Origin: Nemertoderma westbladi
Lineage: Eukaryota; Animalia; Xenacoelomorpha
Length of the DNA stretch: 64,000 bases
NCBI GenBank assembly: GCA_032718475.1
Contig: JAUCBJ010002273.1
Location: forward strand, 1-64,000
Direction: 5' to 3'
Of this stretch, positions 110 through 59,880 are shown in pieces. The notes beneath the pieces are model-generated. The model had not been told where the DNA came from and searched no databases. It was given only the letters and a program-made list of their open reading frames with translations. The position numbers and the translations under genes are program-made. Within the stretch, counting starts at the first letter, position 1. Every line of letters begins with the position of its first letter.

Positions 110-3100
110 TAACCATAACCTTAAAAACAGTGAATCTACCACATCATGGTAACCACGCTGAGGTTTTGAAGAGTCCCATAGCACAGTAGTATTTTGACAG
201 GCTCAAGATACCGCGACACCAGGTAGGTTATAGAAATGTGTCTATATTGATTGCAGCGGAACAACTAATCGCGCACCAAATATGGGAAACAAGACCAGCT
301 GAGTCAAATGTGAATGGGCCACGCGCCCATAGGTCTATACTGGGTTGGTATACACACATACCTATCGCATATGAGTTTCCAAGTGGTGATAAGCCGAACG
401 ATGGATGTGATGATTCGCAAACTATACCACAGATATCACCTAATTCGTGCAATTCTGTAGAACAACCAGACATAGACGATTTCAGAAGAACCTTCATCGA
501 TCATTACAGTGACTTCAGTGAATCGGAGGAGGAGTTGTGTCCTGATAATGTTAGACTGTCAGAACTGCTCTATAACGATAGAACTGACAGTGAACCCGAG
601 GACTACTGTAATCAGACCCGTGGGTCTGGTTCAGTAGCTCACTCGACGTCTTTAAGTAAAGTCTTGAAATATACCAACATAGTGGAAGGTCAGGTAGCGA
701 AATATCGAGACCTCAATGTTTTTCAATTAAGCCAAGAAGAGTTGCAAAAGGAACTGATTCACCAAGAACTCGTGATGGGAGCTAAGACCATAGAATGGTT
801 AGACAAAGACGCAATGGAACCTGGAGGATATGACGTGACCATGTCTGCGGACGAGAAGAGATCAATAGAGATGATGGAGGACACTATACGCCTATTACCA
901 AGTGGACATTTTGAGGTCGGAATGTTGTGGCGTCAACAATAAATACAGCCTAGCTTTAAAACGATTGACTGGTGTACTGTAAGGGCGTGGCTGTTAATAA
1001 ATCAAGATATAAGGGAGAAATATTGCACTCAGATGAATAATTATCTGACCAAAGGATTCGCCGGAAGAGTATAGAACCCAGACATTGAGACCGACCAGAA
1101 TTATCATCTCCCACATCATTATGTAACCCACCCAGATAAACCTAATAAGGTTCACTTAGTCAATGATTGCGCTGCAGTCTATAAGGGCATGTCCCTAAAC
1201 TCCGAATTGATGGACGGTCCCAATCTCAATAACTATTTAATCGGGATCCTATTACGCTTCAGACAGTGCCGATTATGTTTCATCAAGTGAGAGCCTGCAA
1301 AGCAGATGAAGACAGCCTCAGGTTTCTCTGGTATGAGAACGAAGACTTATCAGGACCAGTGGTCACGTATCAGATGTACATTCGGATATTCGGTGCCCGC
1401 GACAGCCCGAACAGCATGTGTTTCATTCTAAAGAAAACCGCGATGGCCCAAATTGGGAACTATCCAGTGGACGTCATTGAGTCGATCCTCAAGAACTTTT
1501 ACATGGACGACAGATTGGTATCAAGGGACACAGTAGAAGAGGCGATACAAGTGGCCCACGATCTACAGAACTGTTTAGCAATGGGAGGGTTTCCTCTTAC
1601 GAAGTTTACTACCAATTCGGAGGCTTTACTAGAGTCCTTCCCGGTGAAAGATCGTGGGAGCGGAGATATCGAGCTAGGTGTGGAACCCATTCCCATAGCG
1701 CGAGTATTAGGACTTGGATGGAACCCAAATACTGATAAATTCCAGGTAAGGGTAAGATTTAAACCCAGACACAAGACATTGACTAAGAGAGTTTGCTTAT
1801 CGACCATGAGCAGGCACTTTGACCCAATGAACTTCATAAGTCCAGTGATATTGCAAGCAAGGATTTGCAAGAGGCAAATATGGTTATCGAAACTGGATTG
1901 GGACGAGCCAATATCCCCAATACATGTGAATCAGTGGAGAGAATGGGAGGCCGAATTGCATTTACTGAAGGACATAGATGTACCCGATCCTACTTTCCAA
2001 ACTAATTGGTATTTCCACCTGATTTGGAATTACACATTTTCAGTGACTCAAGCGACATGTAGACTGTTGAATCAATATAAATTCGAGATGGCTTTTGTTA
2101 CTTCTAGGTCGAAGACAATGCCACTCAAATATATGACCGTCCCTCGCGCAGAGTTACAGGCAACGGTAGTATCTGCAGAGGTAAGTAAACAGATCAAGGA
2201 GGAATTAGACACTACTTTGACATTATTTTATTGGATGGACGCATCTTTTGTGCTAGTTTCTATTGCAGCCGACAATATCGTGCTAAAGACGTTTGTGGCA
2301 AACAGGCGCGCTCAGATAGTCGATTTTTCGACGAAGGAGCAATGGAGACATTATCCAGTAGTATTAAAGTGGAATTAGTGGAAATAAAAGTTAACAAACT
2401 CTCCAAATCTAAATCGAAAGCCAGACAAGAGTCATTGGAGCGGCCTGAAGCGTCTTTGGAGCGGCCAGAAGCCAGAAGAGTCATTAGAAGGACCCATAGA
2501 CTTGTTGGACCAAGAGACAACAAGGTCTGGAAGCCACCCCTACGGATTGCGCACGGAACGCAAGGGTCAAAGTTGGTAAGTGACTGACAAGAAACGACCA
2601 TAACAGTGGAGCCTTCGGTTTACAACACTGCGGAGTTGGATTCGAAGATTCCATCACCATGGTCACAATTGTCACCATTACTAGAGTCATATAGTATTTA
2701 TGACAAATTGATAGAATCGTCAGCCTTTTTGCTGTCAATCTGTAAAAGAACCGCTTGGTTGAGCCGTTTTGTTTCATTCTGTTATTTGAAATTTACAAAA
2801 CAATTAGGGAAACAAACGAGTACTAATAATCATGTAATTCGGAAGTTAAAGCAACCTTTGACAGAAGGTGAGATCGATCAAGCTGAATTAAAACTTCTAA
2901 GACATTATCAAGTGTATGCCTTTCAAAAAGAATTTAGTCTATCAGTAAAGGCGTTCTTCTCCGATAAAGGTACTAACTTTGTCGAAGGAGATAATGAGCT
3001 TAATGCAGCTCACAGGATCGCACAAAATAAATAAATCTCTGCAGCACTTTTGCCCCACAGAGAATAGAGTGGAATTTCAACACTCCAGAGAGTCCTTGGA

Positions 3101-3646
3101 GAGGTGGAAGTTGGGAGCGCCTTGTTCGCTCCATAAAACAGGCTATAGCCAAGACAATATATAGCCATAGCTATGTTACCAGATGGTGTTACCAAGTCAT
3201 CTGCTTATGCAAAATCCAGCATTTCTTTTATTAGCTTCAGAGCCTGTCGATAGCGAGCTATATAGTCGAAAGAGTTGGAAGGTAACTCAACTATTAGGAT
3301 ATACCTTCTGTGAATATTGGTGGAACTATTATCTTCCCACAATATCCACCAGATCGAAGTGGTACAAAACTGTTCGTAGTCTCCAGAGGGGGGATTATGT
3401 ATTAATAACAGAACCGGTTACAAAGCAAAAATATTGGGAAACTGGTGTAATCCTACACGTACACCCGGACGTACAGGATGTAGTACCGTTACAGTGAAAG
3501 TTAAATGCAAGTGTCCAAACAAGGAAAAGTGTAAAACCAAGGGTTTACACACCTTGGACAGACCACTGCAAGATTACGTGTTATTAGAAGAAACACGCAT
3601 TGAGACAGGAGACTATAACTTGTCTTCTTCCTCAAAACAAAATTAG
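110..3646 (+). mobile_element. Degenerate BEL/Pao LTR retrotransposon pol (protease C-terminus, RT, RNase H, partial integrase) with stops, frameshifts and deletions
   Basis: BEL-typical motifs in successive broken ORFs: VSILIAAE..AHRSILGW, GHFEVGMLW, MFHQV..LRFLW, FGARDSP, FYMDD, RVLGLGW, FDPMNFISP, TVPRAELQA, FVANRR, SDKGTNF, YLPTISTRSKW, LDRPL..LLEE. No LTR found at either end. Confidence 0.9.
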
Positions 3647-3749: not shown

Positions 3750-4166
3750 GGGTATCAAATAAATTTTTTTGCATTTGAAATTTTTAAAAGTTAAAAATTA
3801 TACTTACTGTGAACCCAAGACAAATTTAAATGTTAAAATAGATGTGTCTAAAAACCTGTCTATAAAAGTACAGTAATTTTGAAAGTTGTGAAAAGTTTGG
3901 AATACATCGTATCTGAACACCATGGTCATTGCTATTATTAATTGCCGAAAATTGTGCACTACTTGTAATTGTGGTGCTGCAATATTACCACCCCAGTACA
4001 TTTTTTCGAAAATTTTAGGTCGGATCCAGACTAGTGATACCTACGTACAAACAAAAAATCAGACGTTTTCGTTAATATTTGTAGATTTTAGAGGGATGGG
4101 TCAATATGACCCCCCCCCCCCCCGGTATTTGTACAGCATTTTATAGCCCGGTACTAATAGGGTTAA
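3750..4166. mobile_element. One end of a TTAA-targeting (piggyBac-type) non-autonomous DNA transposon
   Basis: Ends in CCCGGTACTAATAGGG-TTAA (4147-4166), with a poly-C subterminal tract at ~4110. The partner end was not found and the left boundary is approximate. Confidence 0.4.
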
Positions 4167-5597
4167 AAGGGGAAAAGCCACCACCAATTTGGACAAAAGG
4201 TCAACTAAAGCCTCTCCCCAAGAAAGGAGACCTCGGTATACCAACAAACTATCGTGGGATCTGTCTGCTTGTGGTAGCTGCTAAAATATACAATAAAATG
4301 ATTCTATATAGGATTAGGCCTCACATAGAGAAACTACTGCGTAAGAGCCAAAACGGATTTCGACCAAGTAGATCAACAATAGCTCAGATACTTGCACTAC
4401 GGAGACTGATTGAATGAATTAAGTCAAAGAATCTCCCCGCTGTCATGACTTTTGTGGACTTCAAGAAGGCATTCGACTCCATCCATAGAGGCAAAATGCT
4501 TGAAATCCTAAGAGCTTATGGAATACCAGAAGTTATCGTTGCTGGCATTGGATTGTTATATTGTGACACAGAAGCACAGGTACTCTCACCAGATAGTGAA
4601 ACTGAGTTTTTCTCAATCCTGGCTGGCGTACTGCAAGGTGACACATTAGCACCATTACTATTTGTAATTGTACTGGATTACACAATGATGATGGCCACAA
4701 AGGGTGAAGATCTGGGATTCACACTTCAAGAACGCAGAAGTAGTAGATATTAAATTAAATTAAAGGAAGGATAGGAAGTAGATATATAAGGATATTAAAG
4801 GAAGTAGATATCCGGCAACTACAGTCACAGACACCGACTTTGCGGATAACATCGCCCTGCTCTCTAATACGCTAGCAGATGCACAGCTTCTACTAAATGA
4901 AGTGGAGAGGGCTGCTAAGGAGGTTGAATTGCATATAAATGCTACAAAGACCGAATTCATGACTTTTAATGTTGACGGAAACTTGACAACCATTGATAAT
5001 AATCAACTAAGGAAGGTTGACGACTTCCAGTACCTAGGATCATGGATAGAGAGTAGCAAAAAGGACATAGAAGTTAGGAAAGCAAAGGCTTGGGTAGCTC
5101 TATCAAAAAATGGATACCATCTGGAAATCATATCTCCCCAGGCACTTGAAGACTAAGTTCTTTCGAGCCACAGTGGAAAGTGTATTTTTATACGGGGGTG
5201 AGACCTGGACACTGACTAAATCACTTGGACAACGAATTGATGGTTGCTACACAAGACTACTAAGGGCAGCCCTAAACATCAGCTGGAGACAACACATGAC
5301 AAATGCCGAGCTTTATGGTACAACACCACCTGTATCAACCACCCTCCGTGAACGCAGATTAAGATTCAGTGGGCACTGCTGTCGAAGTAAAGACGTGGTC
5401 ATGCCAGATCTACTTTTCTGGCAACCAACTCATGGAAAGCGTAGTCGTGGACGACCGGCCATAACATATATAGATCAACTTGAAAGGGATACTGAACTTG
5501 GAAGAAACGAAATTGCGACAACTATGGAGAATCGGGAAACCTGGAAGGATCTCATTTCCACTGTCCGAGTTCGCTCAACTTAGTAGTAGTAGTAGTA
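4167..5597 (+). mobile_element. 5'-truncated RTE-clade LINE (reverse transcriptase, pseudogenised)
   Basis: PKKGDL..NYRGI, QNGFR, FVDFKKAFDSI, GVLQGDTLAP, DFADN (YADD equivalent), FQYLGS, RRLRFSGHC, GRP. Stop at 5583 lies within a (TAG)5 3' tail typical of RTE. Confidence 0.92.
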
Positions 5598-7581: not shown

Positions 7582-8152
7582 TGTACGCGCTTTTATAGAC
7601 CTTCAGCAGTTTAACCTGCCGAAATTTATATGTCTTTATTGATAATCTGCCTTTTTTAAGATAATAAGATTTAATACAAAACAAACCAAAAACATTAGCC
7701 GAAGCCAGTCCATGCGCGTCCAAATGACCCGTTTATAACACCGGGAGACTGGATTCGTGGGCTTAAATTTATTTGCGGTCAAGCCTACTGTATTATTCGA
7801 TTGATTACTAATATATAATCTCTGACAAATATTATTCACTTTCGGGAAATATTAGCAGTTCCTTTTAGGACGCGGCGCTCTACCTATGTAAACAGAGTTA
7901 TGACTGATACTACACACAACGATATGGCTTAAATTTCAAGCATAGGGCGCATTCTTTAGGAATGCTTTATTATCAGATCCAATCACTTTACAATCACGCA
8001 CGCTACCGGTAACGCACAACACTGCTCACTGATATGCCGACAGTTACTGACTTTGATCAGGTATAAAGAGATATGCACTGGACTCAGGTAGTGTCTGTCA
8101 AACAACATTAGATTCACTACAAACACAATAATAAAGTCGCAATTGTTGTACA
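7582..8152 (-). mobile_element. 3' LTR of exonuclease-carrying BEL/Pao element, copy A
   Basis: TGT...ACA termini. Purine tract AGAGAGAAGGGTTA (minus strand, 8153-8166) abuts the LTR start. Homology to 57201-57754 begins exactly at the TGT. Confidence 0.8.
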
Positions 8153-8898
8153 TAACCCTTCTCTCTAACCTGTAGTGTATCAAGGATATTGGGAAAATGC
8201 GGGTTGATTATTGATATTCTTCAACTAATAACATCCAATTATACTGATACAAAATTACAAACAGTAAAAGCAGTATGACGGTAGGTTAAGATATAATTAG
8301 ATTGCATTGAATCATAAGTTATAAATTGGATAGCTTTGATAATAGCTATGCTTTCTATAATTTAGCCTACTAATGTTCTTATAAAAAGGCAGAAAACATT
8401 TCGCTATATCAAAACGGTCTTAAAACACTGATAATAAAGTCTAAAAATCCTAACAAAATCATAACCAAAGTCCCGTGACTTTAGCTCTCTTATTTTCCAA
8501 GAATCCCGTTCAACACATGTAATCAGCAGTGAGACAGGATAATTTCAGTTCAGTAGCTCGGGATTGGTCGAAATCAGAACTAACTCAACGCAGGGCTATG
8601 GGTAACTGGGGCAACCTTCCCAAGCCGGCTGGCCAATCGAACAGCTCAGATCCCTCCTAAAGGATTCCAACGCCTTGGAGGGGGGAACTGGTTAGCAAAG
8701 AAAACAAATCAGTCATATCCCAGAAAAACCTTTACAGTAGGTTTCAGAGTATTTTAGCGTATGGGGGAAAAACTGGGTTGCGGGGCGAAGGGCCAGTTAC
8801 ATCCCACAGAAGCTTTTACACCGCTCCCAGAAAATGAGATTGAAGTCTATAAAATATACAAAATCGCAGTTTCTAATATACATAAATACTCTAAACAG

Positions 8899-11800
8899 TT
8901 AGTCTTTCTTGCGCGGACGGCGTTTACGCAGTTTTTTAAAGCTAGCCAGAGTCCTTTTCTCTTTGGGGCGAGCCACTTTACAAGGAGGGCTATAACTCCT
9001 GGGTGAAGGGTGCAATATAATTGCATCAGAGGGTGCAGGATTGTTGTCGGTATATCCGCCAGTTGAGGTTCCGGGTAGGTTGTCATCAACATCGGGGGAC
9101 TGAGGTCTAACGGCCTTTAGGGCTCGTTTTAGGACGGCTGCTCTCACAGGTCCTCTGCGAGTGGTCTGAACAGAAGCCGTGGGTGGACCGTAGGCTGTCA
9201 GAAACTGTCTTGGTTTAACAGTTCTCTCCAACTCGCGTTCGCGGGCTCGATATTCGTAAGGCCTTCGATATACTTCTTGTAACTCAGGATGCGAGTTAAC
9301 GAATAATTCTCCATAGTCCGGATCGCGTCGGATAAAGTTGATTAAATAATAGGAATGAATATCATTGGGGTTAACTCTCCTAAGGAATTTGCGCACAAAC
9401 TTAGTCGAAATACATTCTCCGACGCGCTTTAATAGCTCGTAACTCGGGATGCACGCTTTCTGTTCGACAGAAGCGAATAAATACGGATGGAACGCATAGA
9501 CTCCTTCGTAAGCGCGTCCAGGGTAGTAGCGATGACGTGAGTTACAATGTAAATCAGCGTTCGCTTCCCAAGCTCGAATGTAACGGAGTACAATCATTTC
9601 GTCTACACTCTCCAAATCTTTATTGAAGGGACAATCAAAGCTGGCGTGTCCTTTCAGCTGACAATGGTGGCATTGCATCATGAACTGGGGGCAGACAGCA
9701 AAAATGTGCGAATCATTGAGTCGACAATAAGCGCAGTAAATTTCCATCGAAGGCTGTTCGTGGAAATAGGAACATAGGATATTCGTATCCATAGGCGTAA
9801 TATGGTCTCTAGATGCGCATAACCGACAACGCTGACGATCAACATAGTTGGCATGGCGATAATCGTACGCAGTGAGACACTGTGGACCTTGATACCATTC
9901 GATAATATAATCGTTGTCGCTGTTCCGGGGCGTAGTAGGTTGAATCTCCTCAGATTCCATACACATAGGCTCGTCTTCCCAGTGTGTAGCTGCGGCGAGC
10001 GTAGTTGACTCTTCCGGTGGACCTACTGTTTGAATCTCAACGACAGAATAACCTGTGGTGAGTCGAGGTCTTTGTATAACAGAAGAATGTAAATTCTCGA
10101 TGCAAATATCCTTAAATAGGGCAAATCCGGCACTATCCAACTTCTCAGCAGCTGAGCTTCTCAGGCTGAGCTTGGTCAACGCGCGATCTTTAAATTGGCT
10201 ATCCACGTTGTGGAACGGGGTTAGAAATCGCCGGAAACATTCAAAGCGTATGAATTTGTTATGTTCATCTAGCTTAGCGAGTTTGGTTCCAAGTATTAAC
10301 GGATGGGCGCGTATAGTACGACTGCACACGTCGGCTAGCCAACCGGAAAGTGCGGTATTTTCCAAGATCGTGTAGATAGCTAAAGAGGGACGGAGTGGAA
10401 CACTCATGAAGCTATACACGGCGCCAGGTGCGGTCAACGGTCCGTCAAAATATAATCGGGAATAATGGTCTCCATATACTTGTTGATAATTAAGGGAATT
10501 TCCAACCTTGAAATTCCATCCGTATTCCTGAAAGGCAATATGTCCGATGGAAGTTCGTTGAACTTTAGTAATGTCGTTAGACGTATTAGCGTACATGGTA
10601 CGGAAGAAACCTCGGCCTTCTGCCCAAGGTGCAATTAACTGCGTGTCTACAAATGGATATGGTGTATCCTCCATATTTCGAAAATCATTTTGTAGATCTC
10701 CATAAACGGCGGAACCGATTTTAAGGATCTTTTCATTGAACAACATCTCGAGCACGGGTTGGGGTAGCATCGATCCATCGATACCCATGGCCGGTTTACG
10801 TTCGGTATCAATGACGTAACGCTGCGCGAGTACGAATTGACCATGCCGAAGATTCTTTTGTGTTTCCGTGAGAGTTTCAAAAGAATAATCAACCACGTCG
10901 GAACACGCTCGAGTAAACACGTGGGTAGAACCGGCTAATCCGCGTATATGGATCATGCGCGTGGTTCCTAATTCTCCGACTGGAACGCTGCCTTCATTAT
11001 CGTAGGTAACTACTCCATACATCTCGATGATATTAAGGGTCTCATTCCACTCTTTTGTAGCGTTCTCGAGGGTCATCCCTACCGGGTGCCATAAGGTAGC
11101 ACATTGGTTAGCGTCAGGGAGATCACTATACTTCAAGGATTGAGTGTTACACGTCTCCATATTTCCGTGTCTTTTTATTCTCTCCTCCTCGAATAATACG
11201 TCGAGATTCCAATGGACTAATCGAGTTTTAATGAATCCATCGAGGTTATAAGGAGGTATCGTATCATTCTCAATTCTAGAAATGTTATATGGTTTTCTAA
11301 AAGAGTTTACCTTTACTAACTGATCCAAATGTTTCTGTAATTGTTCGAGTTCGACAATGTCCAGAGGATTTATTAACGGTAGAAACTTCAAGCTATGCAT
11401 AGGATCTTCTGGTTTTATCATATAATATTGAGTCAGATTAACGTAATAAGGGTGATCTTTAATCCCATAAAACGAGTTCGTTAAAGGGCGAGCGCGTATG
11501 TTGACATCGTGTACCATACGACGGACAAGATCCGCTCGATTGTCCGGAGGTTCTACGAGTATACCGTCAACGCGAGCAGCTTCGATCGGCGGGCGCTGTA
11601 ACATGGGGGCGTCGGCGATAAGCTGGTGTGATCCTGTACTAATATCGACCGGTTGGGGTTGTACTTTCGCGAAGAGTTTATCTCCGAAGTTGGGAATCAT
11701 AGAGGGATGACGGATAGTTTTAGAGTATAAGTCCGTCATAAGGATTTGGGTTTCGGGTTGAGCTAAAGCGGCTTCTTCCCTCTCGTCCATTTCCGTATGT

Positions 11801-13152
11801 TTCTTTTCGAGTTGGTTCTCTTCCGCTCGTTGTCTCATACGCTCGTCTAGAAACTCCTGGAGAGAGTACGTGCGTCCCAGCTCTATGTCGTCCTCGAGGT
11901 TTTGTATCTCTCGATCGAACTGTGGTAAGGCTAAATCCTTCACCGCTTGAACTTGTTGCTGTAATCTACGTTTTTCGAGGTAATCCTGTGTTCCCTTCCC
12001 GATTTTCTGTCGAATAGCGTCTAAAGCATTTCTAATAACGCTCTCTTCGACTTCCGTGGCAGGTTGAATCGGGGTTAATCCGGGGCGGTTGTAGGGATTA
12101 AATGGCGATATAAGATGCCCGCGTCCTAATCCGGCTAGGTAGGATGGTCTAATGTCTAAAGAGCCCACTACCGGAGTACCACCTATTAACTGTTCAGGTA
12201 ACACCAAGTCTTTGAACAGAGAATATAGTTCGGGAGGATCGGTGATACTATTAGGATCAAGAGTTTGAGGTCTAACGGGGGAATGAGGAGGCCTAACCGA
12301 GTATTCCGGAACTCTGATCAGGGGTTTATTGAGTGATCGTTTGAGGCGGGCGACCGTGGGCGACACATCGAATAGGTTTCGCTCGAAACTCCCGTACGTA
12401 CAACGCGTAAAACTATGTTTAGCGCAACGTCTCCGCGGATGTTTATGTCTTTCCGTTTGTTGGTTGGGTCTAGGGCATTCGTCACAATAATACCATAGAC
12501 GTAAGTCCTGTAGAGGGAATGCGGGTGATCGTTCTCCCGTTTTGCAATACTCCTCCATTTGTGCAAAGCTATCGGGAACCACGGGTAGCGGACGATCGGC
12601 CGTGAGATACATCATGGTGAAGTATAGTCGTTGGAGTTCTATCATGGGATCATGATGTATACCTTGAGGATATCGAGTCTCTAGGTTTTGTTGACTGGCA
12701 ATATTGAGATAAGTTTCTCTCAAAAATTCCAGGTAGTCGTTGAAGTTGATACGCTTATCAGGTTCCTCAACGTTTTCTCGGTCGAGCCGGTTACGAATAG
12801 AGTTCTCGTGGTCTATTCTTGGTTTATCGTTACGACTCCGCTGAGCGTGGTATTTAAACAAAACCATTTCTCTTTCGGTGTCTACATCGTCCGTATCATG
12901 TAGGTCGATCGGATGGCCGGTGGTTAGAAAGTCCATATACGTACCATTACGGTGCGTGTAGCGAGCGGTGAATTTTCTATAGTCCAATTCACGCGTGAGT
13001 TGTTCTTGGGACATCGGCGGTTCGATGTAACGACCATCTTCCTCGGCAGCAGTGGGACCGGGTTCACCACTCACCAAGCTATCCACAAACGCCTGCAAAG
13101 GTACATTATATCGCTCCCTGACACCAAGATCATCTTCTATCAATTCCGTCAT
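8899..13152 (-). CDS. Retrotransposon accessory protein (~1417 aa): N-terminal Cys/His cluster, coiled coil, DEDDy/DnaQ-like 3'-5' exonuclease domain, CCHC zinc knuckles, basic C-terminus
   Basis: Uninterrupted ORF. The ATG at 13152 (MTELIEDDLG) is conserved in copy B, whereas the track's TTG start is not. ExoI VVTYDNEG, LPQPVLEMLFNEKILKIGSAVYGD (ExoII), FVDTQLIA, SIGHIAFQEYG, PLRPSLAIYTILE (ExoIII). Knuckles CRLCASRDH, CAYC..H..C and CHHCQLKGHASFDC. Tail KKLRKRRPRKKD. Confidence 0.8.
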   Translation of the reverse strand: MTELIEDDLGVRERYNVPLQAFVDSLVSGEPGPTAAEEDGRYIEPPMSQEQLTRELDYRKFTARYTHRNGTYMDFLTTGHPIDLHDTDDVDTEREMVLFKYHAQRSRNDKPRIDHENSIRNRLDRENVEEPDKRINFNDYLEFLRETYLNIASQQNLETRYPQGIHHDPMIELQRLYFTMMYLTADRPLPVVPDSFAQMEEYCKTGERSPAFPLQDLRLWYYCDECPRPNQQTERHKHPRRRCAKHSFTRCTYGSFERNLFDVSPTVARLKRSLNKPLIRVPEYSVRPPHSPVRPQTLDPNSITDPPELYSLFKDLVLPEQLIGGTPVVGSLDIRPSYLAGLGRGHLISPFNPYNRPGLTPIQPATEVEESVIRNALDAIRQKIGKGTQDYLEKRRLQQQVQAVKDLALPQFDREIQNLEDDIELGRTYSLQEFLDERMRQRAEENQLEKKHTEMDEREEAALAQPETQILMTDLYSKTIRHPSMIPNFGDKLFAKVQPQPVDISTGSHQLIADAPMLQRPPIEAARVDGILVEPPDNRADLVRRMVHDVNIRARPLTNSFYGIKDHPYYVNLTQYYMIKPEDPMHSLKFLPLINPLDIVELEQLQKHLDQLVKVNSFRKPYNISRIENDTIPPYNLDGFIKTRLVHWNLDVLFEEERIKRHGNMETCNTQSLKYSDLPDANQCATLWHPVGMTLENATKEWNETLNIIEMYGVVTYDNEGSVPVGELGTTRMIHIRGLAGSTHVFTRACSDVVDYSFETLTETQKNLRHGQFVLAQRYVIDTERKPAMGIDGSMLPQPVLEMLFNEKILKIGSAVYGDLQNDFRNMEDTPYPFVDTQLIAPWAEGRGFFRTMYANTSNDITKVQRTSIGHIAFQEYGWNFKVGNSLNYQQVYGDHYSRLYFDGPLTAPGAVYSFMSVPLRPSLAIYTILENTALSGWLADVCSRTIRAHPLILGTKLAKLDEHNKFIRFECFRRFLTPFHNVDSQFKDRALTKLSLRSSAAEKLDSAGFALFKDICIENLHSSVIQRPRLTTGYSVVEIQTVGPPEESTTLAAATHWEDEPMCMESEEIQPTTPRNSDNDYIIEWYQGPQCLTAYDYRHANYVDRQRCRLCASRDHITPMDTNILCSYFHEQPSMEIYCAYCRLNDSHIFAVCPQFMMQCHHCQLKGHASFDCPFNKDLESVDEMIVLRYIRAWEANADLHCNSRHRYYPGRAYEGVYAFHPYLFASVEQKACIPSYELLKRVGECISTKFVRKFLRRVNPNDIHSYYLINFIRRDPDYGELFVNSHPELQEVYRRPYEYRARERELERTVKPRQFLTAYGPPTASVQTTRRGPVRAAVLKRALKAVRPQSPDVDDNLPGTSTGGYTDNNPAPSDAIILHPSPRSYSPPCKVARPKEKRTLASFKKLRKRRPRKKD

Positions 13153-13195
13153 ATTTGCTATCGAATCCACCAATATTATAACAAGTTATATGTTT

Positions 13196-13370
13196 TAGGT
13201 CAGCGGGCGTCGCTGCCTACTAATCGCGGCCCCCCGGACAGTGGGATTCTCAGCGCCGATGTACCGCTGTCGCGGTGTTTACGCCAACGTTGTGGCAACA
13301 GCACGACAACGATAACCGACACAAGTCCCTCCACTGTCCGTCCCAAAGGCTTGTTATCACTTGAGGTTCT
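13196..13370 (-). promoter_or_regulatory. Conserved structured RNA element upstream of the accessory ORF (IRES candidate), copy A
   Basis: 10-bp helix 13235-13244/13331-13340 encloses nested helices. 3' hairpin UAGGCAGCG-ACGCC-CGCUGACCUA. Near-identical to 59881-60052 with pairing-preserving changes. Confidence 0.55.
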
Positions 13371-13879
13371 TGCTATGGGAGAGTTGGGTTATCTTACAAT
13401 TGCGACTAGCTACTGTAAACACACCTTAGCAGCAACATTCACCTACAAACGCATAAATTCCACACAACAGCTACCAACTACCATCCTACAGGCCATTTGT
13501 CCGTTAGTCAATGCCTTCCAGAATGTCACGTTGTTGTTATTGTGTATCCTTGGATACCAACCGTGTGCTATACAATCACTATGCTGAGTAACGGTACAAG
13601 TTTTCTATTGTTCTTTTAACTCGTTTTTTAATTCTAGCGTGGGTGTTGCTATGGTGACATTATGTAAAGCTAGCGGTAGAATTAGGGTAGTTCTCATGCA
13701 TACAGATCTGGGATGTTGTTTGATAGTAAGTCTTTAGTTTGTCCATATCCTCTTTACACATGATTTTAGAAATTTTATCGGCTATTGACTATATGTTGGA
13801 GATTCTCGCACTCTAGCGACTGGGGGGGGGAACTGGCCAACAAGGCAAACGAATCAGTTATCCCACAAAAGCTTTTACA

Positions 13880-15500
13880 GTAGCGCCCACCCCTACCCTT
13901 GGGCAGCAGATAGGAGTAGCGCCCACCCCTACCCTTGGGCAGCAGATAGGAGTAGCGCCCACCCCCACCTTCGGGTAGCAGATAGGAGTAGCGCCCACCC
14001 CTACCTTCGGGTAGCAGATAGGAGTAGCGCCCACCCCTACCTTCGGGTAGCAGATAGGAGTATCGCCCACCCCTACCCTTGGGCAGCAGATAGGAGTAGC
14101 GCCCACCCCTACCTTCGGGCAGCAGATAGTAGTAGCGCCCACCCCTACCTTCGGGTAGCAGATAGGAGTAACGCCCACCCCTACCCTTGGGCAGCAGATA
14201 GGAGTAGCGCCCACCCCTACCCTTGGGTAGCAGATAGGAGTAGCTCCCACCCCTACCCTTGGGTAGCAGATAGGAGTAGCGCCCACCCCTACCCTTGGGC
14301 AGCAGATAGGAGTAGCGCCCACCCCTATCCTTGGGCAGCAGATAGGAGTAGCGCCCACCCCTACCCAGCTACCCTTGGGCAGCAGATAGGAGTAGCGCCC
14401 ACCCCTACCTTCGGGTAGCAGATAGGAGTAGCGCCCACCCCTACCTTCGGGTAGCAGATAGGAGTAGCGCCCACCCCTACCTTCGGGTAGCAGATAGGAG
14501 TATCGCCCACTCCTACCCTTGGGCAGCAGATAGGAGTAGCGCCCACCCCTACCTTCGGGCAGCAGATAGGAGTAGCGCCCACCCCTACCTTCGGGTAGCA
14601 GATAGGAGTAGCGCCCACCCCTACCTTCGGGTAGCAGATAGGAGTAGCGCCCACCCCTACCCTTGGGCAGCAGATAGGAGTAGCGCCCACCCCTACCCTT
14701 GGGCAGCAGATAGGAGTAGCGCCCACCCCTACCCTTGGGCAGCAGATAGGAGTAGCGTCCACCCCTACCCTTGGGCAGCAGATAGGAGTAGCGCCCACCC
14801 CTACCTTCGGGCAGCAGATAGGAGTAGCGCCCACCCCTACCTTCGGGTAGCAGATAGGAGTATCGCCACCCCTACCTTCGGGTAGCAGATAGGAGTAGCG
14901 CCCACCCCTACCTTCGGGTAGCAGATAGGAGTAGCGCCCACCCCTACCTTCGGGTAGCAGATAGGAGTATCGCCCACCCCTACCCTTGGGCAGCAGATAG
15001 GAGTAGCGCCCACCCCTACCTTCGGGTAGCAGATAGGAATATCGCCCACCCCTACATTCGGGTAGCAGATAGGAGTAGCGCCCACCCCTACCTTCGGGTA
15101 ACAGATAGGAGTATCACCCACCCCTACCTTCGGGTAGCAGATAGGAGTAGCTCCCACCCCTATCTTCGGGTAGCAGATAGGAGTAGCGCCCACCCCTACC
15201 TTCGGGTAGCAGATAGGAGTAGCGCCCACCCCTACCTTCGGGTAGCATATAGGAATATCGCCCACCCCTACATTCGGGTAGCAGATAGGAGTAGCGCCCA
15301 CCCCTACCCTTGGGTAGCAGATAGGAGTAGCGCCCACCCCTACCCTTGGGTAGCAGATAGGAGTAGCGCCCACCCCTACCTTCGGGTAGCAGATAGGAGT
15401 AGCGCCCACCCCTACCCTTGGGCAGCAGATAGGAGTAGCTCCCACCCCTACCCTTGGGTAGCAGATAGGAGTAGCGCCCACCCCTACCTTAGGGTAGCAG
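13880..15500. repeat. 36-bp GC-rich tandem array (~45 units)
   Basis: Unit GTAGCGCCCACCCCTACC(TTCG/CTTG)GG(T/C)AGCAGATAGGA. The 12-aa periodic ORFs are a by-product of the repeat. Confidence 0.97.
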
Positions 15501-17131
15501 CTATCGAAAGAATAGCCTTCGGGTCGCCTCCGGCTTCGTTCGACTGTTTCCTTTTTTATTGCTTTTCTACCAAAAACACTCCTGATCATTTTTAGCGAAA
15601 TTTATTCGTAAACGTTTTATTGGCAATGGTATTTTATTTCATGCGGGGAAATTCTGTAATTTAATTTAAATTGAAATGTATGAAGAAATGGTCACGCATA
15701 TTAACATACAATAATACATAAAGGTAAAGGTATTAAAAATAGCCTTTATTCGTGAAATTCGTCATTCTGAAATAAATAATATGTTTAATTGAAAAATTGT
15801 AAATATCCCGCGATTTTAGATAACAAAATTTTTCTTTGTTCGACCATGACCTACTATAAATACTGTAAGACCATGAAAGCTGCAATCTGCCTACTAAATT
15901 TAGTAGGCACACGTTTTTAAAATCATTTATTTTATTTTTGAAGGATTTTATAATAAAAGTCTTCTAGAACATTTTTTTATGATTCTTTTCAATAGTAAGT
16001 ATTATAATTTTGAAACAACTTATTTTAATAGCTATTTTTATGTATTATTGGTAAATGCCAGTTCCACTTCGTTGGTGCGTACCTACGCCATCTCCTGGAA
16101 TATTGTGTCTTAAATTCAGCGCCTTGGCCACCAATTATTCTACAAATCTTAATGCGTCAGAATATTTATTTTCGCTTTCAATCCTTAACTACAAGCGTTT
16201 GAAAGGTGTTTTATTGAGTCTATTTAATTACTATCTATCCTGGAGACAGGGGGGAAAACTGGACGCAAAACCCGCCTTGGCGAATTAATATCCCGTCTCA
16301 ATGTTAAATTCTCGATTTAGGAAAAGGAACAGGTTACAGTGGCACGTTATTTTAACCAAAACAATAAACTAAACACAATAGAACAGGTTACAGTTTTATT
16401 TTTGAGAGTAATCAGCTGTTATTTGCGTCCAATTTCCCCTGGAGAGGGATGAATTTTTTATTGCGTCCAGTTTCCCCTCCTATCTGCTATTAGGACACAG
16501 TTTTTATTACATTATCGTGTTCTACACTGTGTTCTATACGTGTTCTACAGTAGATTGTTTAGCATTTAAATAGCCTCGAGACGATGCTAAAACTTGCCAC
16601 TTCCGATTGCTAATATTCCACTCAATTTCATTAACATTCAGAGGGGGGTGGGTTGCACTGAATTAAGACAAAAAAATGTCTTGTATTTTTTATATAATTT
16701 TTTGTTATTTATGCTACTGTAGCAACCATAGCTAGTGTTTTTTTTGGGAGCTAGTGTTTTTTTAAACATTGTGTTTTTACTAGCAAATAGTGAAGAAAGA
16801 CAAAAGCAAATAAATAGTTGATATTGTTCAATCTTGTGGAATGTTTATTGTTTATAATGTTTTCAATAATGATGATGAGTACCGGTAAACTACAGTTCTA
16901 TAATTTAGCTATTATTTACATGACGCGACTCAGTTTGAATTCTTTTACTGAAGATTCTCTCACTGCCTGTGAGGCTTTGCATCGATTATTTACAAATATG
17001 TTTACGAGAGGGTGAAAAAGTAATTCTTGTAATTAGTTCGGTATGGGAAGGACAACCTTAGCCCCCCCCCCCAAGGCGACCTTTACGGTCGCCTTGGTCT
17101 TACGGTGGTTACGGTCTTAAAGGTCGCCTTG

Positions 17132-21930: not shown

Positions 21931-23585
21931 GGTTATAAGACAGAAATAAGCGCTATAAAACACTTAATAAAGATAAATTTAAAAAAATAAAAAATCTTCA
22001 TATATAAAATTCCAATAAAAAGTCGACCGAAAAGTCACCACATGGGCGATAATTAGGGTAAAGAGGTAATGGTGACAAATATCGAGACTTGAAAAATATC
22101 GAGAGTAAAAATAACGCGAGATGAAAAATATCGAAAACAACGAGTGTTGAAAAATATCGAGTGTTGAAAAATATCGAGAGTAAAAATATCGAGAGTAAAA
22201 ATATCGAGTGTTGAAAAATATCGAGAGTAAAAATATCGAGTGTTGAAAAATATCGAGAGTCAAAATATTGAGTGTTGAAAAATATCGAGTGTTGAAAAAT
22301 ATCGAGAATGAAAATATCGAGAGTAAAAATATCGAGTGTTGAAAAATATCGAGAGTCAAAATAACGAGAGTAAAAATATCGAGAGTAAAAATAACGAGTG
22401 TTGAAAATTAACGTGATTAAAAAATATCGAGAGTAAAAATAACGCGAGATGAAAAATATCGAAAACAACGAGTGTTGAAAAATATCGAGAGTAAAAATAT
22501 CGAGAGTAAAAATATCGAGTGTTGAAAAATATCGAGAGTAAAAATATCGAGTGTTGAAAAATATCGAGAGTCAAAATATTGAGTGTTGAAAAATATCGAG
22601 TGTTGAAAAATATCGAGAGTAAAAATATCGAGAGTAAAAATATCGAGTGTTGAAAAATATCGAGAGTCAAAATAACGAGAGTAAAAATATCGAGAGTAAA
22701 AATAACGAGTGTTGAAAATTAACGTGATTAAAAAATATCGAGAGTAAAAATAACGCGAGATGAAAATATCGAAAACAACGAGTGTTGAAAAATATCGAGT
22801 GTTGAAAAATATCGAGAGTAAAAATATCGAGAGTTGAAAAATATCGAGAGTAAAAATATCGAGTGTTGAAAAATATCGAGAGTCAAAATATTGAGTGTTG
22901 AAAAATATCGAGTGTTTAAAAATATCGAGAGTAAAAATATCGAGTGTTGAAAAATATCGAGAGTAAAAATATTGCATTTTGTTTGAGCATTTTATTTAGA
23001 ATTATGGAACAATATTACAGTACATGGGTTACAACAGTGCAAGTGCAAGTGAATGGCATTATGTAATACACCTTGGGTACCCATTTACCAGATTTATTAT
23101 ACTAGCTAGTTTTTGCTATTTATTTAATAAATATTATAAAAGAAGTGCTAGCTATAAATTTTGATAAATATTATAAATATTGTTAAATATTATATAGGAA
23201 CACGTATAAGTTACCAAATGTTGATAAATATTTTTGTTCTAGAACATTTTTAGTAAAAAAAATTATCATACAACCTTTATTTAAAAAAATTGTTTCTATC
23301 GATATTTTTACTCTCGATATTTTTCAACAATCGATATTTTTCAACACTCGATATTTTTCAACACTCGATATTTTTACTCTCGATATTTTTCAACAATCGA
23401 TATTTTTACTCTCGATATTTTTCAACACTCGATATTTTTACTCTCGATATTTTTACCCTCGATATTTTTACTCTCGATATTTTTTGAACTCTCGATATTA
23501 TCGTTATTTTTCAACACTCGATGTTTTTACTCGCGTTATTTTTACTCTCGATATTTTTCATGTCTCGATATTTTTCAATATAACC
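21931..23585. repeat. Foldback element with inverted 15/17-bp tandem arrays
   Basis: (AAAAATATCGAGAGT / AAAAATATCGAGTGTTG)n at ~22075-22975 and its reverse complement at ~23296-23580. Possible GGTTATA...TATAACC termini; no TSD seen. Confidence 0.8.
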
Positions 23586-25012: not shown

Positions 25013-25372
25013 CATTTTATGCACTAACACTAACAGTATGTAAGCTACTTACCAGTAATTATCCTTACCGCAATTAATTAGTACCCCTTCTCCTGTTACC
25101 GGCAGTTGCAGTTCACAGTCAGACAGTCTGTTACCGGTACCGGGATGTTTCTTTACACAAGATCACAGATTACCCCGATCAATGCCGGTATTCAGGTATT
25201 AGCCTACCGGTATATTAAATTAGGATAATCACGAATAACTTAGTCGTGGAAAGTGACTGAGTGATAGATAGATTGATGGATGGATGAACTGCCGGAAGTT
25301 GAAAATCTGTGAATTATTTCTATATTTTAGTTTTATGTAATAAATATAGTTGAAATTTAAACTGTTAAAACG

Positions 25373-25996
25373 ATGGGCTCGAAAGCCCCGAAGAAGAAAG
25401 TAAAAGGTGCCTACGCAGCCCCAGTTCACCTCCCTTCTGGTGAAACTCTATCGGATAACACCCAGAAACGAAGTTGGACGTTGGGCTCTCCGCTTGGTCA
25501 AGGCGGCTTCGGAGCGATACACCTGGCTACCGAGAAACTCGGCGCCAATAAACAGTCGACGACGGAGTACGTAGTCAAGGTGGAACCTTCGGGAAACGGG
25601 CCTTTATTCGTAGAGCTCCATTTCTACATCGGGGTTGCCAAACCCGATATGATAAATTCCTATAAGAAAGAACACCGACTCGCGTTCCTAGGGGTTCCTC
25701 GTTTCATCAGTACTGGACATCACGAGTTCAGAGATATCAAGTACCGCTTCCTGGTAATGGATCGAATGGGGAGCGATTTACAGAAAGTCTTCGAGGCACA
25801 CGGGAAGGTGTTCCCCACCGCGACCGTTTGTAGACTCGGTCTGCGAATTATCGACGCGTTTCAGTACATACACGAACGGAACTACGTCCACGCAGACGTC
25901 AAGGGGGCCAATCTGTTGCTAGGAGACCGGCCCGGGGAGGTCTACCTTGTGGACTTCGGTTTGGCGTATAAGTTCGCCCCGGGTGGCGTTCACAAG
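25373..25996 (+). CDS. VRK1: Vaccinia-related kinase (VRK1/ballchen-like), exon 1
   Basis: LGQGGFGAIH, VVKVEP..NGPLFVELHFY, YVHADVKGANLL, VYLVDFGLA. GT donor at 25997 (AAG|GTATTT), phase 0. Confidence 0.93.
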
Positions 25997-26103
25997 GTAT
26001 TTTATTTGTTTATATCTCCAATGTGGTTTAAAAAATGCGCTGAAAACTATATACCATCGAAAAGAGAACGAACTTAAGTAAATAAAAATCTGAATAAAAA
26101 TAT

Positions 26104-26120
26104 TAGCGCCCCCTAGCGGC
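26104..26120 (-). promoter_or_regulatory. CTCF-like binding motif in the VRK intron
   Basis: Minus strand GCCGCTAGGGGGCGCTA matches the CTCF core consensus and stands out in AT-rich DNA. Confidence 0.5.
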
Positions 26121-26673
26121 TGGCGTTCCCATTTTCATTCTTCGGCCACTTTTTTTGTTTTCATTTTCAATCTCTGATAATTGGCAAATTTGTAAAAAAT
26201 ATTCAAAATTTTTTTAAAATTGAAAAAATCCACGTTTTTTAATTTTGTTTCTTAAAATAAATGCGGAAATATTCTGAAATAAAAAAAAGTAGAGTTAAGA
26301 AGAATATTAAATCTTATTAAATTTCCTTTCATAAAAATCACAAATCAAAAATTACAAAAAAAAGGTTAAGAAATGGCGGTGGAGTGTTTTTTGGGTGAAA
26401 AATGTAATACCGAGATAACGTATGTACTCGAATAAGAGCCTGGGCGTTTAAGTTGTTTAAGTTAAAGTTGATAAAAGAAAACAAATAAAATAATTCAAAT
26501 AAAACCAGGATTATCTTTATTACAACCAAGGCGTACTATATACAAGGCCATGCCATCGAGTTAACTGGGGGCGGTGACTGGGGGCAAGATTTTTTTTACA
26601 ACAATTTGATATTTTGATATGGGGAGAGTTCTATAAATTGTCATTTGCTGCAATTTGGTCAATGGACGTAATT

Positions 26674-27327
26674 GAAGCATCCTCGTTAAGTAAGATACAA
26701 AATTTTATGGTAGCTAGTGTTTTAGGTAGGTTTAGCTAGTAATTTCGACACTGGTTCCGACATCCTACTTCCCTTCTATAAATATTTTGTAGTAGCTAGT
26801 TCTTTTTACTATTTGTATAGAAAATGTTCCAGAACATGTTAGCTATTAATTTTTTTAAAAATTATGTTCTAGAACAAATATTTTTTGTTCTAGAACATTT
26901 TTTAGAAAAAAATCTGGATTCTATTTAAAACGCATGGAATCGTTCTAAAACGTGTTTAAAATCAATAAAAAAAATTTCACAATTTACTTTTTTTTTAATT
27001 TTTTTTTCACAATATTTTTTTTCACAATTTTTTTTATTGATTTTAAACACGTTTATAACGATTCCATGCGTTTTAAATAGAATCAGAGATTTTTTTCTAA
27101 AAAATGTTCTAGAACAAAAAATATTTGTTCTAGAACATAATTTTTTTTAAAAATGAATAGCTAACATGTTCTGGAACATTTTCTATACAAATAGTAAAAA
27201 GAACTAGCTACTACAAAATATTTATAGAGGGAAGTAGGATGTCGGAACCAGTGTCGAAATTACTAGCTAAACCTATCTAAAACACTAGCTACCATAAAAT
27301 TTTTATCTTACTTAACGAGGATGCCTC
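26674..27327. mobile_element. Near-perfect ~650-bp palindromic MITE/foldback in the VRK intron
   Basis: GAAGCATCCTCGTTAAGTAAG... is mirrored by ...CTTACTTAACGAGGATGCCTC. Arms pair almost to the centre (~27000). Confidence 0.85.
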
Positions 27328-27692
27328 TTGACTCTTTCTTAACAACAATCAGTTAACGCTCCACATTGTAATATTATTAAACGCCGGGGCATTTATTCGG
27401 GGAAGGCGTTTAAGTTGCTAATTTGATGGTAAGTGGGGCGTTTATTCGATGGGGGGGGGGGGGGGGGGGGGGGGGGGTTATTCGATGGGGGGGGGGGGGG
27501 CTTAAGGGGGGTCCCCCTTAAATATAAATTTAAGAGTTTGTACAGTTTAAATTTATACAGGCTATGATGGTTAGTGTATTAGGGGTATACTTTATTATTT
27601 TAGTTAGTTTGTCAGTAAAACTGTCATGTAACCCACTAACCCTAAGTCGTAATCTTCGAAATTTAGCGGTATTTTGGATATCATTGCCTTAA

Positions 27693-27853
27693 AGGCCGGT
27701 TTACACGTGGCAATTTTTTGATCAACTTTTGCGAGCAACTCAGGTTGCCGATCGAGTTACTCCGTGTATCACGAAGTTGCTGTAAAACGTTACCACTTTT
27801 ACACTGCGGTGCTGAACAAGTGGCCCAAAATGTTGCCACGTGTAAACCGGCCT
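27693..27853. mobile_element. Short Harbinger-like MITE
   Basis: TIR AGGCCGGTTTACACGTGGCAA / TTGCCACGTGTAAACCGGCCT, flanked by TAA and TTA. Confidence 0.75.
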
Positions 27854-28196
27854 TTAGGCCCGTTAATGATAATTTTGTTGTTTAGAATTTATTCTTATAG
27901 TTTGTAACTATTTTTAAAAGCTCTAAACTACAGTAAGACTACCAAATTGTTTTAAAAGATTTAATTGCCAAAATTATATATTTATAAACAAAAGGTGTGA
28001 TAATTTTATAAGCCATAAACTTGAACTGTTATCGAACCCAAGACCTCCAGAGAGATGTACAAATTCAATGCATTTATAATTAATTGGTAATAATAATAAT
28101 AATTAATTAATTATTGCTGCAATTAATAATCATTCATTCATATTTATTGTTCATAACTATTTAATTCATTAATATTTATTATATATTAATTGAAAG

Positions 28197-31414: not shown

Positions 31415-31551
31415 ATACCGAAAATTGTAAGTCTAACCATGTCACCAGTCCGTGTAAAGTTGTACATTGTCATCGTAAAAATATTCCGAGTGAGGTAATG
31501 TTTCTTATTTAGGTAGAGTAAAATAGAATAGGTTGCTAGAAGAAACAAATC

Positions 31552-33075: not shown

Positions 33076-33140
33076 TGAGGACATTCAGCTAAACAATACA
33101 AAGTAGCCGAACTATTAATATATGTTCCGGTATATAAACT

Positions 33141-37180: not shown

Positions 37181-37750
37181 CTAACGGGAACCGGTAGATA
37201 ACAACGCAAGTAAACCCGAAGAGGAAGCCACAGACAAGATGTAGTTAAAGTTGGGGTTGAACGATCGGAGAAGATAGAAGCTAAAGAGTATGATGAGGAA
37301 GATGTACAAGGTGTTGTTGTAGAAGATGGCGAAAGAAGTGGATTCGAACTCGGCAACTTCGTTCTTCTTCCAGAGGATTCGCTCGTCTTTCTCTTTCTTC
37401 GGCATCTTCTTGTCATCCGGAATCGATTTGAGCACCTCGCGAGCCACTGCATCCTCGCGTTTCTGCGCGAATTTGTGCTTGAGCACAAACTTGCTGTTCC
37501 TGTAGGCGAAACTCACCAGCCAGGTCGAGACTAAGGTCATGATGACCCATAGGATTCCGAATTCTAGCGGTTCCATTTGGTGGATTTTCCAGAACAGCCA
37601 CAACGGGATCGTGGAGACGATCAACGCGTTCACATAGAAGAATATCGACGATTTAAACGTCACATTGCGGGAGAAATCCTGCAATAATAGCTCCTCTTCT
37701 TTTGTAATTTTTTGTTGTTTGGTGGTTTTTGAAGCAGCCGTAACAGTCAT
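37181..37750 (-). CDS. SSR3: Translocon-associated protein subunit gamma (TRAP-gamma), intronless
   Basis: [70 protein letters not shown]. Confidence 0.97.
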
Positions 37751-38004
37751 TTTAACAGCAACAGTCTGACAGTAGGCCTACCAGTTCCGTAAATTTCGAA
37801 ATTCGCTTCAACAGTCGAAAAAGTGCCAATAGAACAGTACAGAAGTACAGTAGAAGTTCTTAGTACAGTAGCCTAGTATCGTACAATGCCAGGAGTCAGT
37901 AGAGCAGTACCGGTACCAATCAGCCAAATACAGCAGTCAGGCAGTTCTACCGACAGACCGATTACAGATTAGGCCTACTGGATTATATTATTTATTTATA
38001 CCGG

Positions 38005-59837: not shown

Positions 59838-59880
59838 ATCTGTTATCTGAGTTTATTAATATCAATATGAGTTAATATTT

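Follow-up and report, generated by a model that had tools for sequence, protein, structure and literature searches.

A predicted leader-LTR duplex and a conserved rod hairpin ahead of a likely exonuclease gene in a Bel/Pao retrotransposon of Nemertoderma westbladi

The means by which genes captured behind pol are expressed are known for few LTR retrotransposons. Among the elements bearing such a gene are Juno, Vesta and the Terminons of bdelloid rotifers, whose lineages are Ty3/gypsy-like and Penelope-like. Their extra ORF is of the exonuclease type, and a DEDDy exonuclease ORF3 is known from rotifer LTR elements in the sections of PMC5408684 that deal with them; according to the same sections, the ORF3s of LTR retrotransposons are typically expressed from spliced messages, as is gypsy env. 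IRES activity has been reported for gypsy, LINE-1, VL30 and the Mytilus Steamer-like element MchSLE-1 in portions of PMC4276936 and PMC10974842, and retroelement IRES activity also appears in a portion of PMC3383448. The shunt of pararetroviruses and foamy virus (CaMV, RTBV, PFV) comprises a short ORF, a stem, and a UA-rich landing site, as outlined in part of PMC5902531. Finally, the MusD MTE, MPMV CTE, MLV PTE and HIV RRE are irregular 3' stem-loops that make long-range contacts (PMC4588558, in its relevant part), and the CYC5/CYC3 pairing of Ty1 is a long-range pairing inside an LTR-retrotransposon RNA (PMC7969010, likewise). Our literature search found nothing on the expression of genes behind pol in Bel/Pao elements.

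Here, we describe a computational analysis of a 64,000-nucleotide window of Nemertoderma westbladi DNA (assembly GCA_032718475.1, contig JAUCBJ010002273.1, positions 1 to 64,000), in which a conserved non-coding block precedes an accessory gene, ORF3. A preliminary description of the window had proposed that this block is an IRES. We tentatively propose that it is the 3' end of a leader of about 650 nt in a Bel/Pao element, and that it may act as a translation start device, IRES-like or shunt, within a loop closed by the LTR. The window is repeat-rich animal DNA and contains the block twice, as copy A (13196-13346) and copy B (59881-60029). The order in copy B, on the minus strand, is a Bel/Pao pol, a 1.6-kb stretch in which no long ORF occurs, the block, a disrupted ORF3, and an LTR; in copy A, ORF3 is open and gag-pol is missing. 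The main parts of the element are the following.

61458-63998, minus strand: 3' part of the Bel/Pao pol of copy B, 1.6 kb upstream of ORF3
8899-13152, minus strand: ORF3 of copy A, open, 1417 aa, with a likely DEDDy 3'-5' exonuclease at about residues 715-945 and CCHC knuckles at about 1105-1175
58488-59837, minus strand: ORF3 remnant of copy B, with a premature stop and large internal deletions
7583-8821, minus strand: 3' LTR of copy A, about 1.24 kb, TGT...ACA, AATAAA at 7773, boundaries inferred
57201-58409, minus strand: 3' LTR of copy B, AATAAA at 57394, boundaries inferred
13812-13879, minus strand: first 65-68 nt of a 5' LTR, fused straight to the leader of copy A and matching 58343-58409 at 93%

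The pol of copy B contains Peptidase_A17 (E 1e-26), integrase zinc finger (E 2e-7) and DUF5641 (E 3e-20) domains, and its closest proteins have an identical domain set at 33-34% identity; on these matches we class the element as a Bel/Pao LTR retrotransposon. The linkage of pol to ORF3 is read from copy B, because no single contig spans both, and in read contigs the loose ends at the copy A break continue as copy B sequence. The element belongs to a highly repeated family, with 31,864 contigs from one run mapping to 57230-64000 and all 30 bins of this interval covered in each of four runs. A pol deletion of about 1.7 kb (61593-63306) recurs as a joint in all four runs and likely marks a non-autonomous subfamily. 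The LTR, of about 1.2 kb, starts with TGT behind a short purine-rich stretch and ends with ACA; no whole 5' LTR lies in the window. Its boundaries were placed from the join at 13812 and the alignment of the two copies; the 5' LTR piece of copy A terminates at the LTR's first base, giving a second LTR start at 13879. An LTR start at 8152 was dropped in favour of 8821, as its first bases are not conserved. Only two full copies, related to each other, entered the comparisons below. Pattern searches with the block DNA found no further copies in metagenomes, prokaryote genomes or viral contigs; a helix-only pattern returned six viral loci, none of them rod-like (local scores 22-40 versus 243 for copy B), and protein-led searches returned nothing, or three weak exonuclease loci that are apparently unrelated.

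The identity of ORF3 between the two copies at first, second and third codon positions is 100, 111 and 86 of 114, and 152, 154 and 113 of 164; the third positions vary most, which argues that ORF3 has been selected as a protein. A Pfam profile search gave no match in ORF3, and its sole relative among 1.84 billion representatives is P0001 (E 1e-6, 28% identity), which shares the acidic-motif domain and the cysteine knuckles and itself matches PF01612 only at E 0.2. Other homologue searches of ORF3, and PDB sequence searches, found none. The Atlas places residues 640-1000 among 3'-5' exonuclease clusters (0.92), with PF01612 in 25 of 30 matches and 155-160 shared features, and places residues 1080-1330 near zinc knuckles (0.85), the latter serving as a lead only. 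Both ORF3 and P0001 contain D-x-E, G..DL and Y-x-x-x-E, with the final D replaced by E; we take these acidic motifs to be Exo I, II and III of DEDDy exonucleases. A single-sequence fold prediction of ORF3 reached a pLDDT of 29.7. From these comparisons ORF3 is likely a DEDDy 3'-5' exonuclease with zinc knuckles. Juno, Vesta and the Terminons are not Bel/Pao elements; here the protein is encoded by a Bel/Pao element, is 1417 aa long and contains knuckles. The word 'exonuclease' is absent from the main text of PMC3118150, a BEL/Pao survey, and of PMC13524379, and no report of a DEDDy ORF3 in Bel/Pao was found in literature listings and abstract openings covering few subscription journals. An exonuclease-type ORF3, met so far in rotifer elements, would thus be extended to Bel/Pao.

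The block upstream of ORF3 in each copy contains a rod and a small hairpin, followed by a spacer.

13235-13340, minus strand: unbranched rod hairpin of copy A, 44 bp, from folding and the two-copy consensus
13196-13219, minus strand: small 3' hairpin of copy A with an ACGCC loop, from folding
59881-60023, minus strand: rod and 3' hairpin of copy B, from folding
13153-13195, minus strand: AU-rich spacer of copy A, 43 nt, without AUG, longest pyrimidine run 3

The block folds at -78.5 (A) and -76.0 (B) kcal/mol on the minus strand versus -55.2 and -60.3 kcal/mol on the plus strand, a gap of 16-23 kcal/mol, and none of 200 shuffles was as good as the minus-strand fold (z -3.68 for A, -4.71 for B). 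The preliminary description had placed the structure on the coding strand, and these energies and z scores bear this out. The perfect 10-bp helix that it described (13340-13331:13244-13235) is present, and the A/B indel falls in the tip, as had been stated. The further helices said to lie within the basal helix exist as well, but they are nested in one unbranched rod and form no branched fold: the basal 10-bp helix is followed by an internal loop, helices of 3, 8, 13, 4 and 4 bp, and a variable tip. The two copies differ at 7 of 118 paired positions versus 13 of 49 unpaired ones (Fisher p 5e-4). The rod has eight differences in 120 nt, and none of its 56 consensus pairs has changed on both sides; it is thus conserved in sequence and not in pairing alone. 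The four substitutions cited earlier as G-U swaps (13267, 13274, 13294, 13319) are indeed all Watson-Crick/G-U exchanges on the minus strand, but amount to weak evidence (p about 0.12). Positions 13246 and 13330, advanced as a covarying pair, do change together, but would pair only with C13245 bulged, an arrangement chosen by neither predicted fold. The block was also said to be far better conserved than its flanks, and 135 of its 151 columns are identical, while the spacer has 29 of 44 and the stretch 13441-13600 has 118 of 161; it is not uniquely conserved, however, being equalled by 13640-13720 (75 of 81), 13740-13816 (72 of 78) and about 8800-9040.

A pseudoknot between the GGGGGC run and the ACGCC loop had been suggested. 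In the consensus fold the G-run pairs with an upstream GCCUUU, and the pseudoknot, as read from the sequence, would need a loop of 0-1 nt across a 3-4 bp helix; we have therefore discarded it. A switch in which pairing with the LTR frees the G-run was likewise rejected, the modelled pairing having left the G-run bound. A comparison with Rfam, advised in the preliminary description, matched no known family to the block: covariance models gave no match at gathering score and none up to E 10 across 13100-13900, and the only match elsewhere was a weak mir-23. We regard the structured RNA at the block as real, and larger than first described, on the strength of its fold and conservation, with any function assigned to it a prediction.

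Conservation at the level of sequence, few paired changes, and an upper stem of 33 bp that by eye approximates the length of a microRNA stem would suit a ribozyme, or a small-RNA precursor, that frees an ORF3 RNA or a 22-nt product. Cutting would, however, destroy the genomic RNA, and no Rfam match or catalytic core motif was found; this reading is very improbable. A motif scan of the block found neither a hammerhead core nor a Pol III B box or a T4 terminator, and an HDV-like topology was absent by eye. Kink-turn, hammerhead, HDV-like and Pol III RNA readings of the block were ruled out by the scan and by inspection.

Upstream of the rod, the leader is predicted to pair with the LTR over about 115 bp in two blocks, a complementarity that the preliminary description had missed.

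13341-13407, minus strand: leader arm II of copy A, complementary to LTR 8135-8194
13694-13800, minus strand: leader arm I of copy A, with five double changes relative to its complement in the LTR (about 7980-8128)
13408-13693, minus strand: looped-out part of the copy A leader, with local helices and acceptor-like sites at 13442 and 13412
7978-8194, minus strand: LTR arm of copy A, partner of leader arms I and II
60024-60088 and about 60372-60478 (within 60024-60478), minus strand: leader arms II and I of copy B
57635-57796, minus strand: LTR arm of copy B

The LTR contributes a near-continuous strand to this duplex, whereas on the leader side 287 nt, in part folded themselves, are looped out. 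In both copies the rod begins directly beside the predicted duplex, its first pair (13340:13235) adjoining the final long-range pair (13341:8194). The complementarity of arm II was matched by 0 of 300 shuffles in copy A and 3 of 300 in copy B. The two-copy consensus contains 70 pairs in block I, with five double and three one-sided changes, and 44 pairs in block II. For block I, 44 of the 50 LTR windows away from the partner had no more than 29 pairs and two double changes; block II is less distinct, one of 53 windows reaching 35 pairs and one reaching three double changes. In an unbiased helix scan over all shared sequence, three helices of the duplex ranked top, and two passed a strict helix filter, versus 0-1 in 12 column shuffles. 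Furthermore, each copy pairs best with itself: the own-copy energies of block I are -54.4 and -51.6 kcal/mol versus -37.6 and -37.9 across copies, an advantage of about 15 kcal/mol, and those of block II are -52.8 and -51.4 versus -45.8 and -49.8. The pairing gain was -33.1 and -30.6 kcal/mol versus -3.9 to -21.6 in 26 control windows. Folds of 5.4 and 6.2 kb of copy A formed the duplex unaided, abutting the rod; a whole-region fold of copy B did not form it.

When the fold of each single copy was mapped on the other, six double changes were kept each way, seven of them distinct and including two transversion pairs, while 17 of 127 and 11 of 128 pairs were broken. All seven double changes favour own-copy pairing, the core contains no alleles fitting the other copy better, and those one-sided changes that were retained give G-U on the coding strand; by our own reckoning, 7 of 7 own-copy fits would have a chance of about 0.008 if double changes hit the two lineages at random. 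A register slide of one base gives seven and four coincidences (seven versus six true ones in copy A) because the changes cluster, and the coincidence p values of 1e-4 to 2.5e-3 are not clean, owing to the broken pairs and to this slide control. Taken together, we consider that the RNA clamp between leader and LTR is probably real, and pairing with the LTR appears to carry most of the covariation. This pairing is also the apparent reason why further blocks of the leader match the rod in conservation. Two joints in the data (60036-57772 and 60055-57780) were tried as deletions; they lie on two similar arms and are best read as mis-mapping of arm on arm.

A duplex of this kind might instead reflect events in DNA, the leader arms being an inverted duplicate of an LTR promoter segment that conversion or template switching keeps alike, and the rod a separate feature, perhaps within the 5' UTR of a transcript started at an internal promoter. 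Copying too makes both arms change together, the copy A duplex is equally stable on either strand, some loop helices also fit the plus strand, and the AT-rich repeats at 60652-60749/60816-60911 could be a promoter. However, the match is split into short helices with conserved bulges, is interrupted by the 287-nt gap on one side only, and ends exactly at the rod in both copies, and its kept one-sided changes fit G-U on the coding strand; we consider an origin by DNA copying distinctly improbable. An accidental fold in a G+C-rich stretch, together with accidental complementarity, could draw on the small number of full copies, the p value of the wobble swaps and the slide control. Set against the z scores, the conservation of paired sites, the seven double changes and the own-copy advantage, chance is extremely unlikely to account for the structure.

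The spacer between block and ORF3 had been described as exactly 43 nt in both copies. It is 43 nt, AUG-free and AU-rich in A and B, but its length is not invariant in the family: one insertion and one deletion cancel between A and B, an extra base behind 13163 is common in three of four runs, and two contigs have three extra letters, so that the spacer measures about 43-46 nt across the family. In both copies it is 74-81% A+U and, as modelled, about 55-60% unpaired. In copy B, 27 AUGs lie in the 1.6-kb gap between the pol stop and ORF3, so that scanning from a cap would be unable to reach ORF3. The last 260 nt before the ORF3 AUG contain 0 AUGs versus 4.5 expected (p 0.001) and 1 versus 4.6 (p 0.02), p values that are optimistic because the 260-nt boundary was picked after inspection and the copies are related. 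This depletion is limited to the last 260 nt, AUGs being normally frequent further upstream; the rod tip of copy B contains one AUG. It suggests that arm II, rod and spacer are in the leader of a translated RNA. In copy A the last AUG upstream of ORF3, at 13438, opens a 10-codon ORF, and the leader 10-codon ORF stops 56-66 nt ahead of the rod. This ORF was considered as a conserved peptide and set aside, as pairing or splice signals also explain its changes.

Both copies also contain an AG 2-9 nt ahead of the ORF3 AUG (TAG at 5 in A, CAG at 2 and 9 in B), and a conserved TAAC lies about 30 nt upstream. The CAG 2 nt before the AUG accounts for 91-100% of depth at 13155 in four runs. The end of one host intron (25997-28196) is AU-rich, without a pyrimidine tract, and resembles the spacer. 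Within the LTR arm of copy A there is a donor-like site, CAG|GTTAGA, whose first intron base is 8169, and donor-like sites are kept in the LTRs of both copies. If the AG before the AUG is used as an acceptor, the rod would be intronic. Leader and rod would then form a signal on unspliced genomic RNA, with a role in export, packaging or stability, and ORF3 would come from ordinary splicing, the usual route for an ORF3, from the LTR donor at 8169, or from one at 7615 that a U5 hairpin presents in its loop, to the AG by the AUG. Together with the LTR clamp, the intronic structure could act in export or packaging in the manner of a CTE, RRE or MusD MTE. Elements of this class adjoin the 3' LTR and use long-range contacts (PMC4588558, in its relevant part). 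As another possibility, the clamp would shorten a 7-kb 3' UTR, bringing the poly(A) to within about 1.2 kb of the pol stop and so sparing the RNA from nonsense-mediated decay; the poly(A) would exit the duplex on the pol-stop side (980 + 205 nt). Folding poly(A) back rescues RNA from nonsense-mediated decay. Retroviral RNAs require protection from this decay, according to the portion of PMC6680220 that deals with it and with the RSE. On the other hand, AUGs are free to occur in an intron, whereas the last 260 nt are depleted of them, and a purine at -3 equally suits the context of a start codon. Among the joints listed for one run no spliced one occurs, which has little weight as the run is guessed to be RNA and may be DNA. 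We regard an intronic signal as the strongest rival to a translation start device, possible though somewhat doubtful.

Splicing might also run backwards, the LTR donor at 8169 being joined to 13442, 13412 or the site before the AUG to give a circle of about 5 kb with ORF3; with either upstream acceptor the circle would include the rod as an IRES, and the gene would be expressed from the circle by design. Flanking complementary introns are the layout for back-splicing, arm I lies upstream of all acceptors with its partner 40 nt downstream of the donor, and the loop contains the entire ORF3 with its stop. But the donor lies within the pairing of arm II, which would mask it, no such junction was seen, and linear splicing from the 5' LTR could give the same junction; back-splicing is very unlikely.

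Our preferred reading, though somewhat less likely than not, remains a device for starting translation of ORF3. The strand, stability and conservation of the fold can be read from the sequence, as can the leader's complementarity to the LTR and the changes made in pairs. In this model, the LTR segment would pair with both leader arms and close ORF3 in a loop; provided that 7773 is the poly(A) signal, the segment would certainly lie near the 3' end of the RNA. The rod, stacked on the inner end of the duplex, may bind a protein or the small ribosomal subunit, as is proposed because it is conserved in sequence and not only in pairing. The ribosome would be placed on the unstructured AU-rich spacer and start at the AUG, about 43-46 nt further on. 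The template may be genomic RNA, or RNA spliced to the acceptor-like sites at 13412 or 13442. A 45-bp duplex and a 44-bp rod would halt scanning and so must be entered past or shunted. With a long R region the LTR segment would also be present at the 5' end, where the duplex would let capped ribosomes shunt past gag-pol, jumping after a short LTR ORF whose stop precedes the stem by 12-13 nt. Of the two forms that such a device could take, we hold internal entry to be rather unlikely overall and a shunt improbable. Against either stand the absence of a multiway junction in the rod, of a supported pseudoknot, and of a pyrimidine tract in the spacer; additionally, the poly(A) end would exit the duplex on the side far from the rod.

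For the IRES originally claimed, the setting before an accessory ORF, the coding strand, the block to scanning, and the AUG depletion hold, whereas the pseudoknot and the fixed distance fail, no known IRES family matches, and acceptor-like sites are present; an IRES in the strict sense is doubtful. IRESs of types I and II have a pyrimidine tract before the AUG, those of type IV a branched domain and a pseudoknot near the start, and IGR IRESs multiple pseudoknots and a non-AUG start. None of these hallmarks was found here, as the longest pyrimidine run in the spacer is 3, the rod is unbranched and the G-run pairs upstream, and there was no Rfam IRES match, the HCV-like, picornavirus and dicistrovirus IGR families included. 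The locus resembles the retroelement IRESs described in the cited portions in that a structured RNA precedes a retroelement ORF that scanning reaches poorly; it differs in having no sequence or Rfam match, and most of those IRESs lie in 5' UTRs and have had their activity tested. The literature search found no report of a retroelement IRES joined to the LTR through a long duplex with covariation. Much as in the shunts described in the relevant part of PMC5902531, a short ORF precedes a predicted stem whose arms are free in sequence, and a UA-rich stretch follows; here, however, the stem would enclose all of gag-pol and need a long R region, hypothetical in this element, and rod and hairpin separate the base of the stem from the AU-rich stretch. 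The locus shares irregular 3' stem-loops and long-range contacts with the MTE, CTE, PTE and RRE but no homology, and these elements, mammalian as described in the part of PMC4588558 that covers them, are not there said to loop round an extra gene. It shares with Ty1 a long-range pairing; in CYC, a 5'-end sequence near the primer site pairs with the 3' end, whereas here the partner follows pol and two blocks together give a pairing of about 115 bp. Literature listings and abstract openings covering few subscription journals contained no mention of an accessory gene enclosed by a leader-LTR duplex. By these comparisons the structure appears to be a variant among known retroelement cis-elements and belongs to no Rfam IRES, ribozyme or export family. 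The co-evolving duplex and the conserved rod supply exact pairs to break and restore, and would reveal a new internal start device, a programmed circle, or a means by which a passenger gene of 5 kb escapes RNA surveillance.

Several further features of the element were observed. Two extra hairpins lie in the LTRs on the minus strand, one directly past AATAAA (7690-7775 in A, 57300-57395 in B) and one at the LTR end (7590-7625 and 57205-57245), the loop of the latter containing a donor-like GT (7615/57234). Five of their 37 pairs have changed on both sides, and they may possibly serve poly(A) control and a splice donor. Short LTR ORFs of 8 codons (8208-8234) and 10 codons (57809-57841) on the minus strand, whose stops align in a diverged stretch, end shortly before the LTR arm, at a distance of 13 nt in copy A and 12 nt in copy B. 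A diverged second copy of the LTR's first 60 nt lies at 8676-8740, inside the 3' LTR of copy A. The ORF3 end and purine tract (8800-9040/58390-58630) are 90-98% identical between the copies, silent sites included, with 22 of 25 fourfold sites identical versus 26 of 49 just upstream; the region folds well on the plus strand (z -2.8 and -4.1) and perhaps represents an antisense or DNA element. The remaining intergenic gap (60500-61458) is AT-rich with a direct repeat (60652-60749/60816-60911), and its windows 60820-60979 and 61140-61259 fold well (z -2.7 to -3.9).

Elsewhere in the window, 190-3497 and 4085-5583 on the plus strand contain a broken second Bel/Pao pol of another family and, by eye, apparent fragments of a non-LTR reverse transcriptase. 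Tandem arrays at 13879-15503, 22065-23585, 33138-35243 and 51166-57200 yield long false ORFs, and one array adjoins each copy of the element. A host kinase gene at 25361-29258 (plus strand; Pkinase), presumably VRK-like, has an intron of about 2.2 kb (25997-28196) with a 650-bp inverted repeat at 26674-27327. Genes for a ligand-gated ion channel (31540-33075, plus strand) and TRAP-gamma (37181-37777, minus strand) are apparently intron-free, as seems to be a host gene with a weak Mastermind-like match at 41764-43947 (minus strand).
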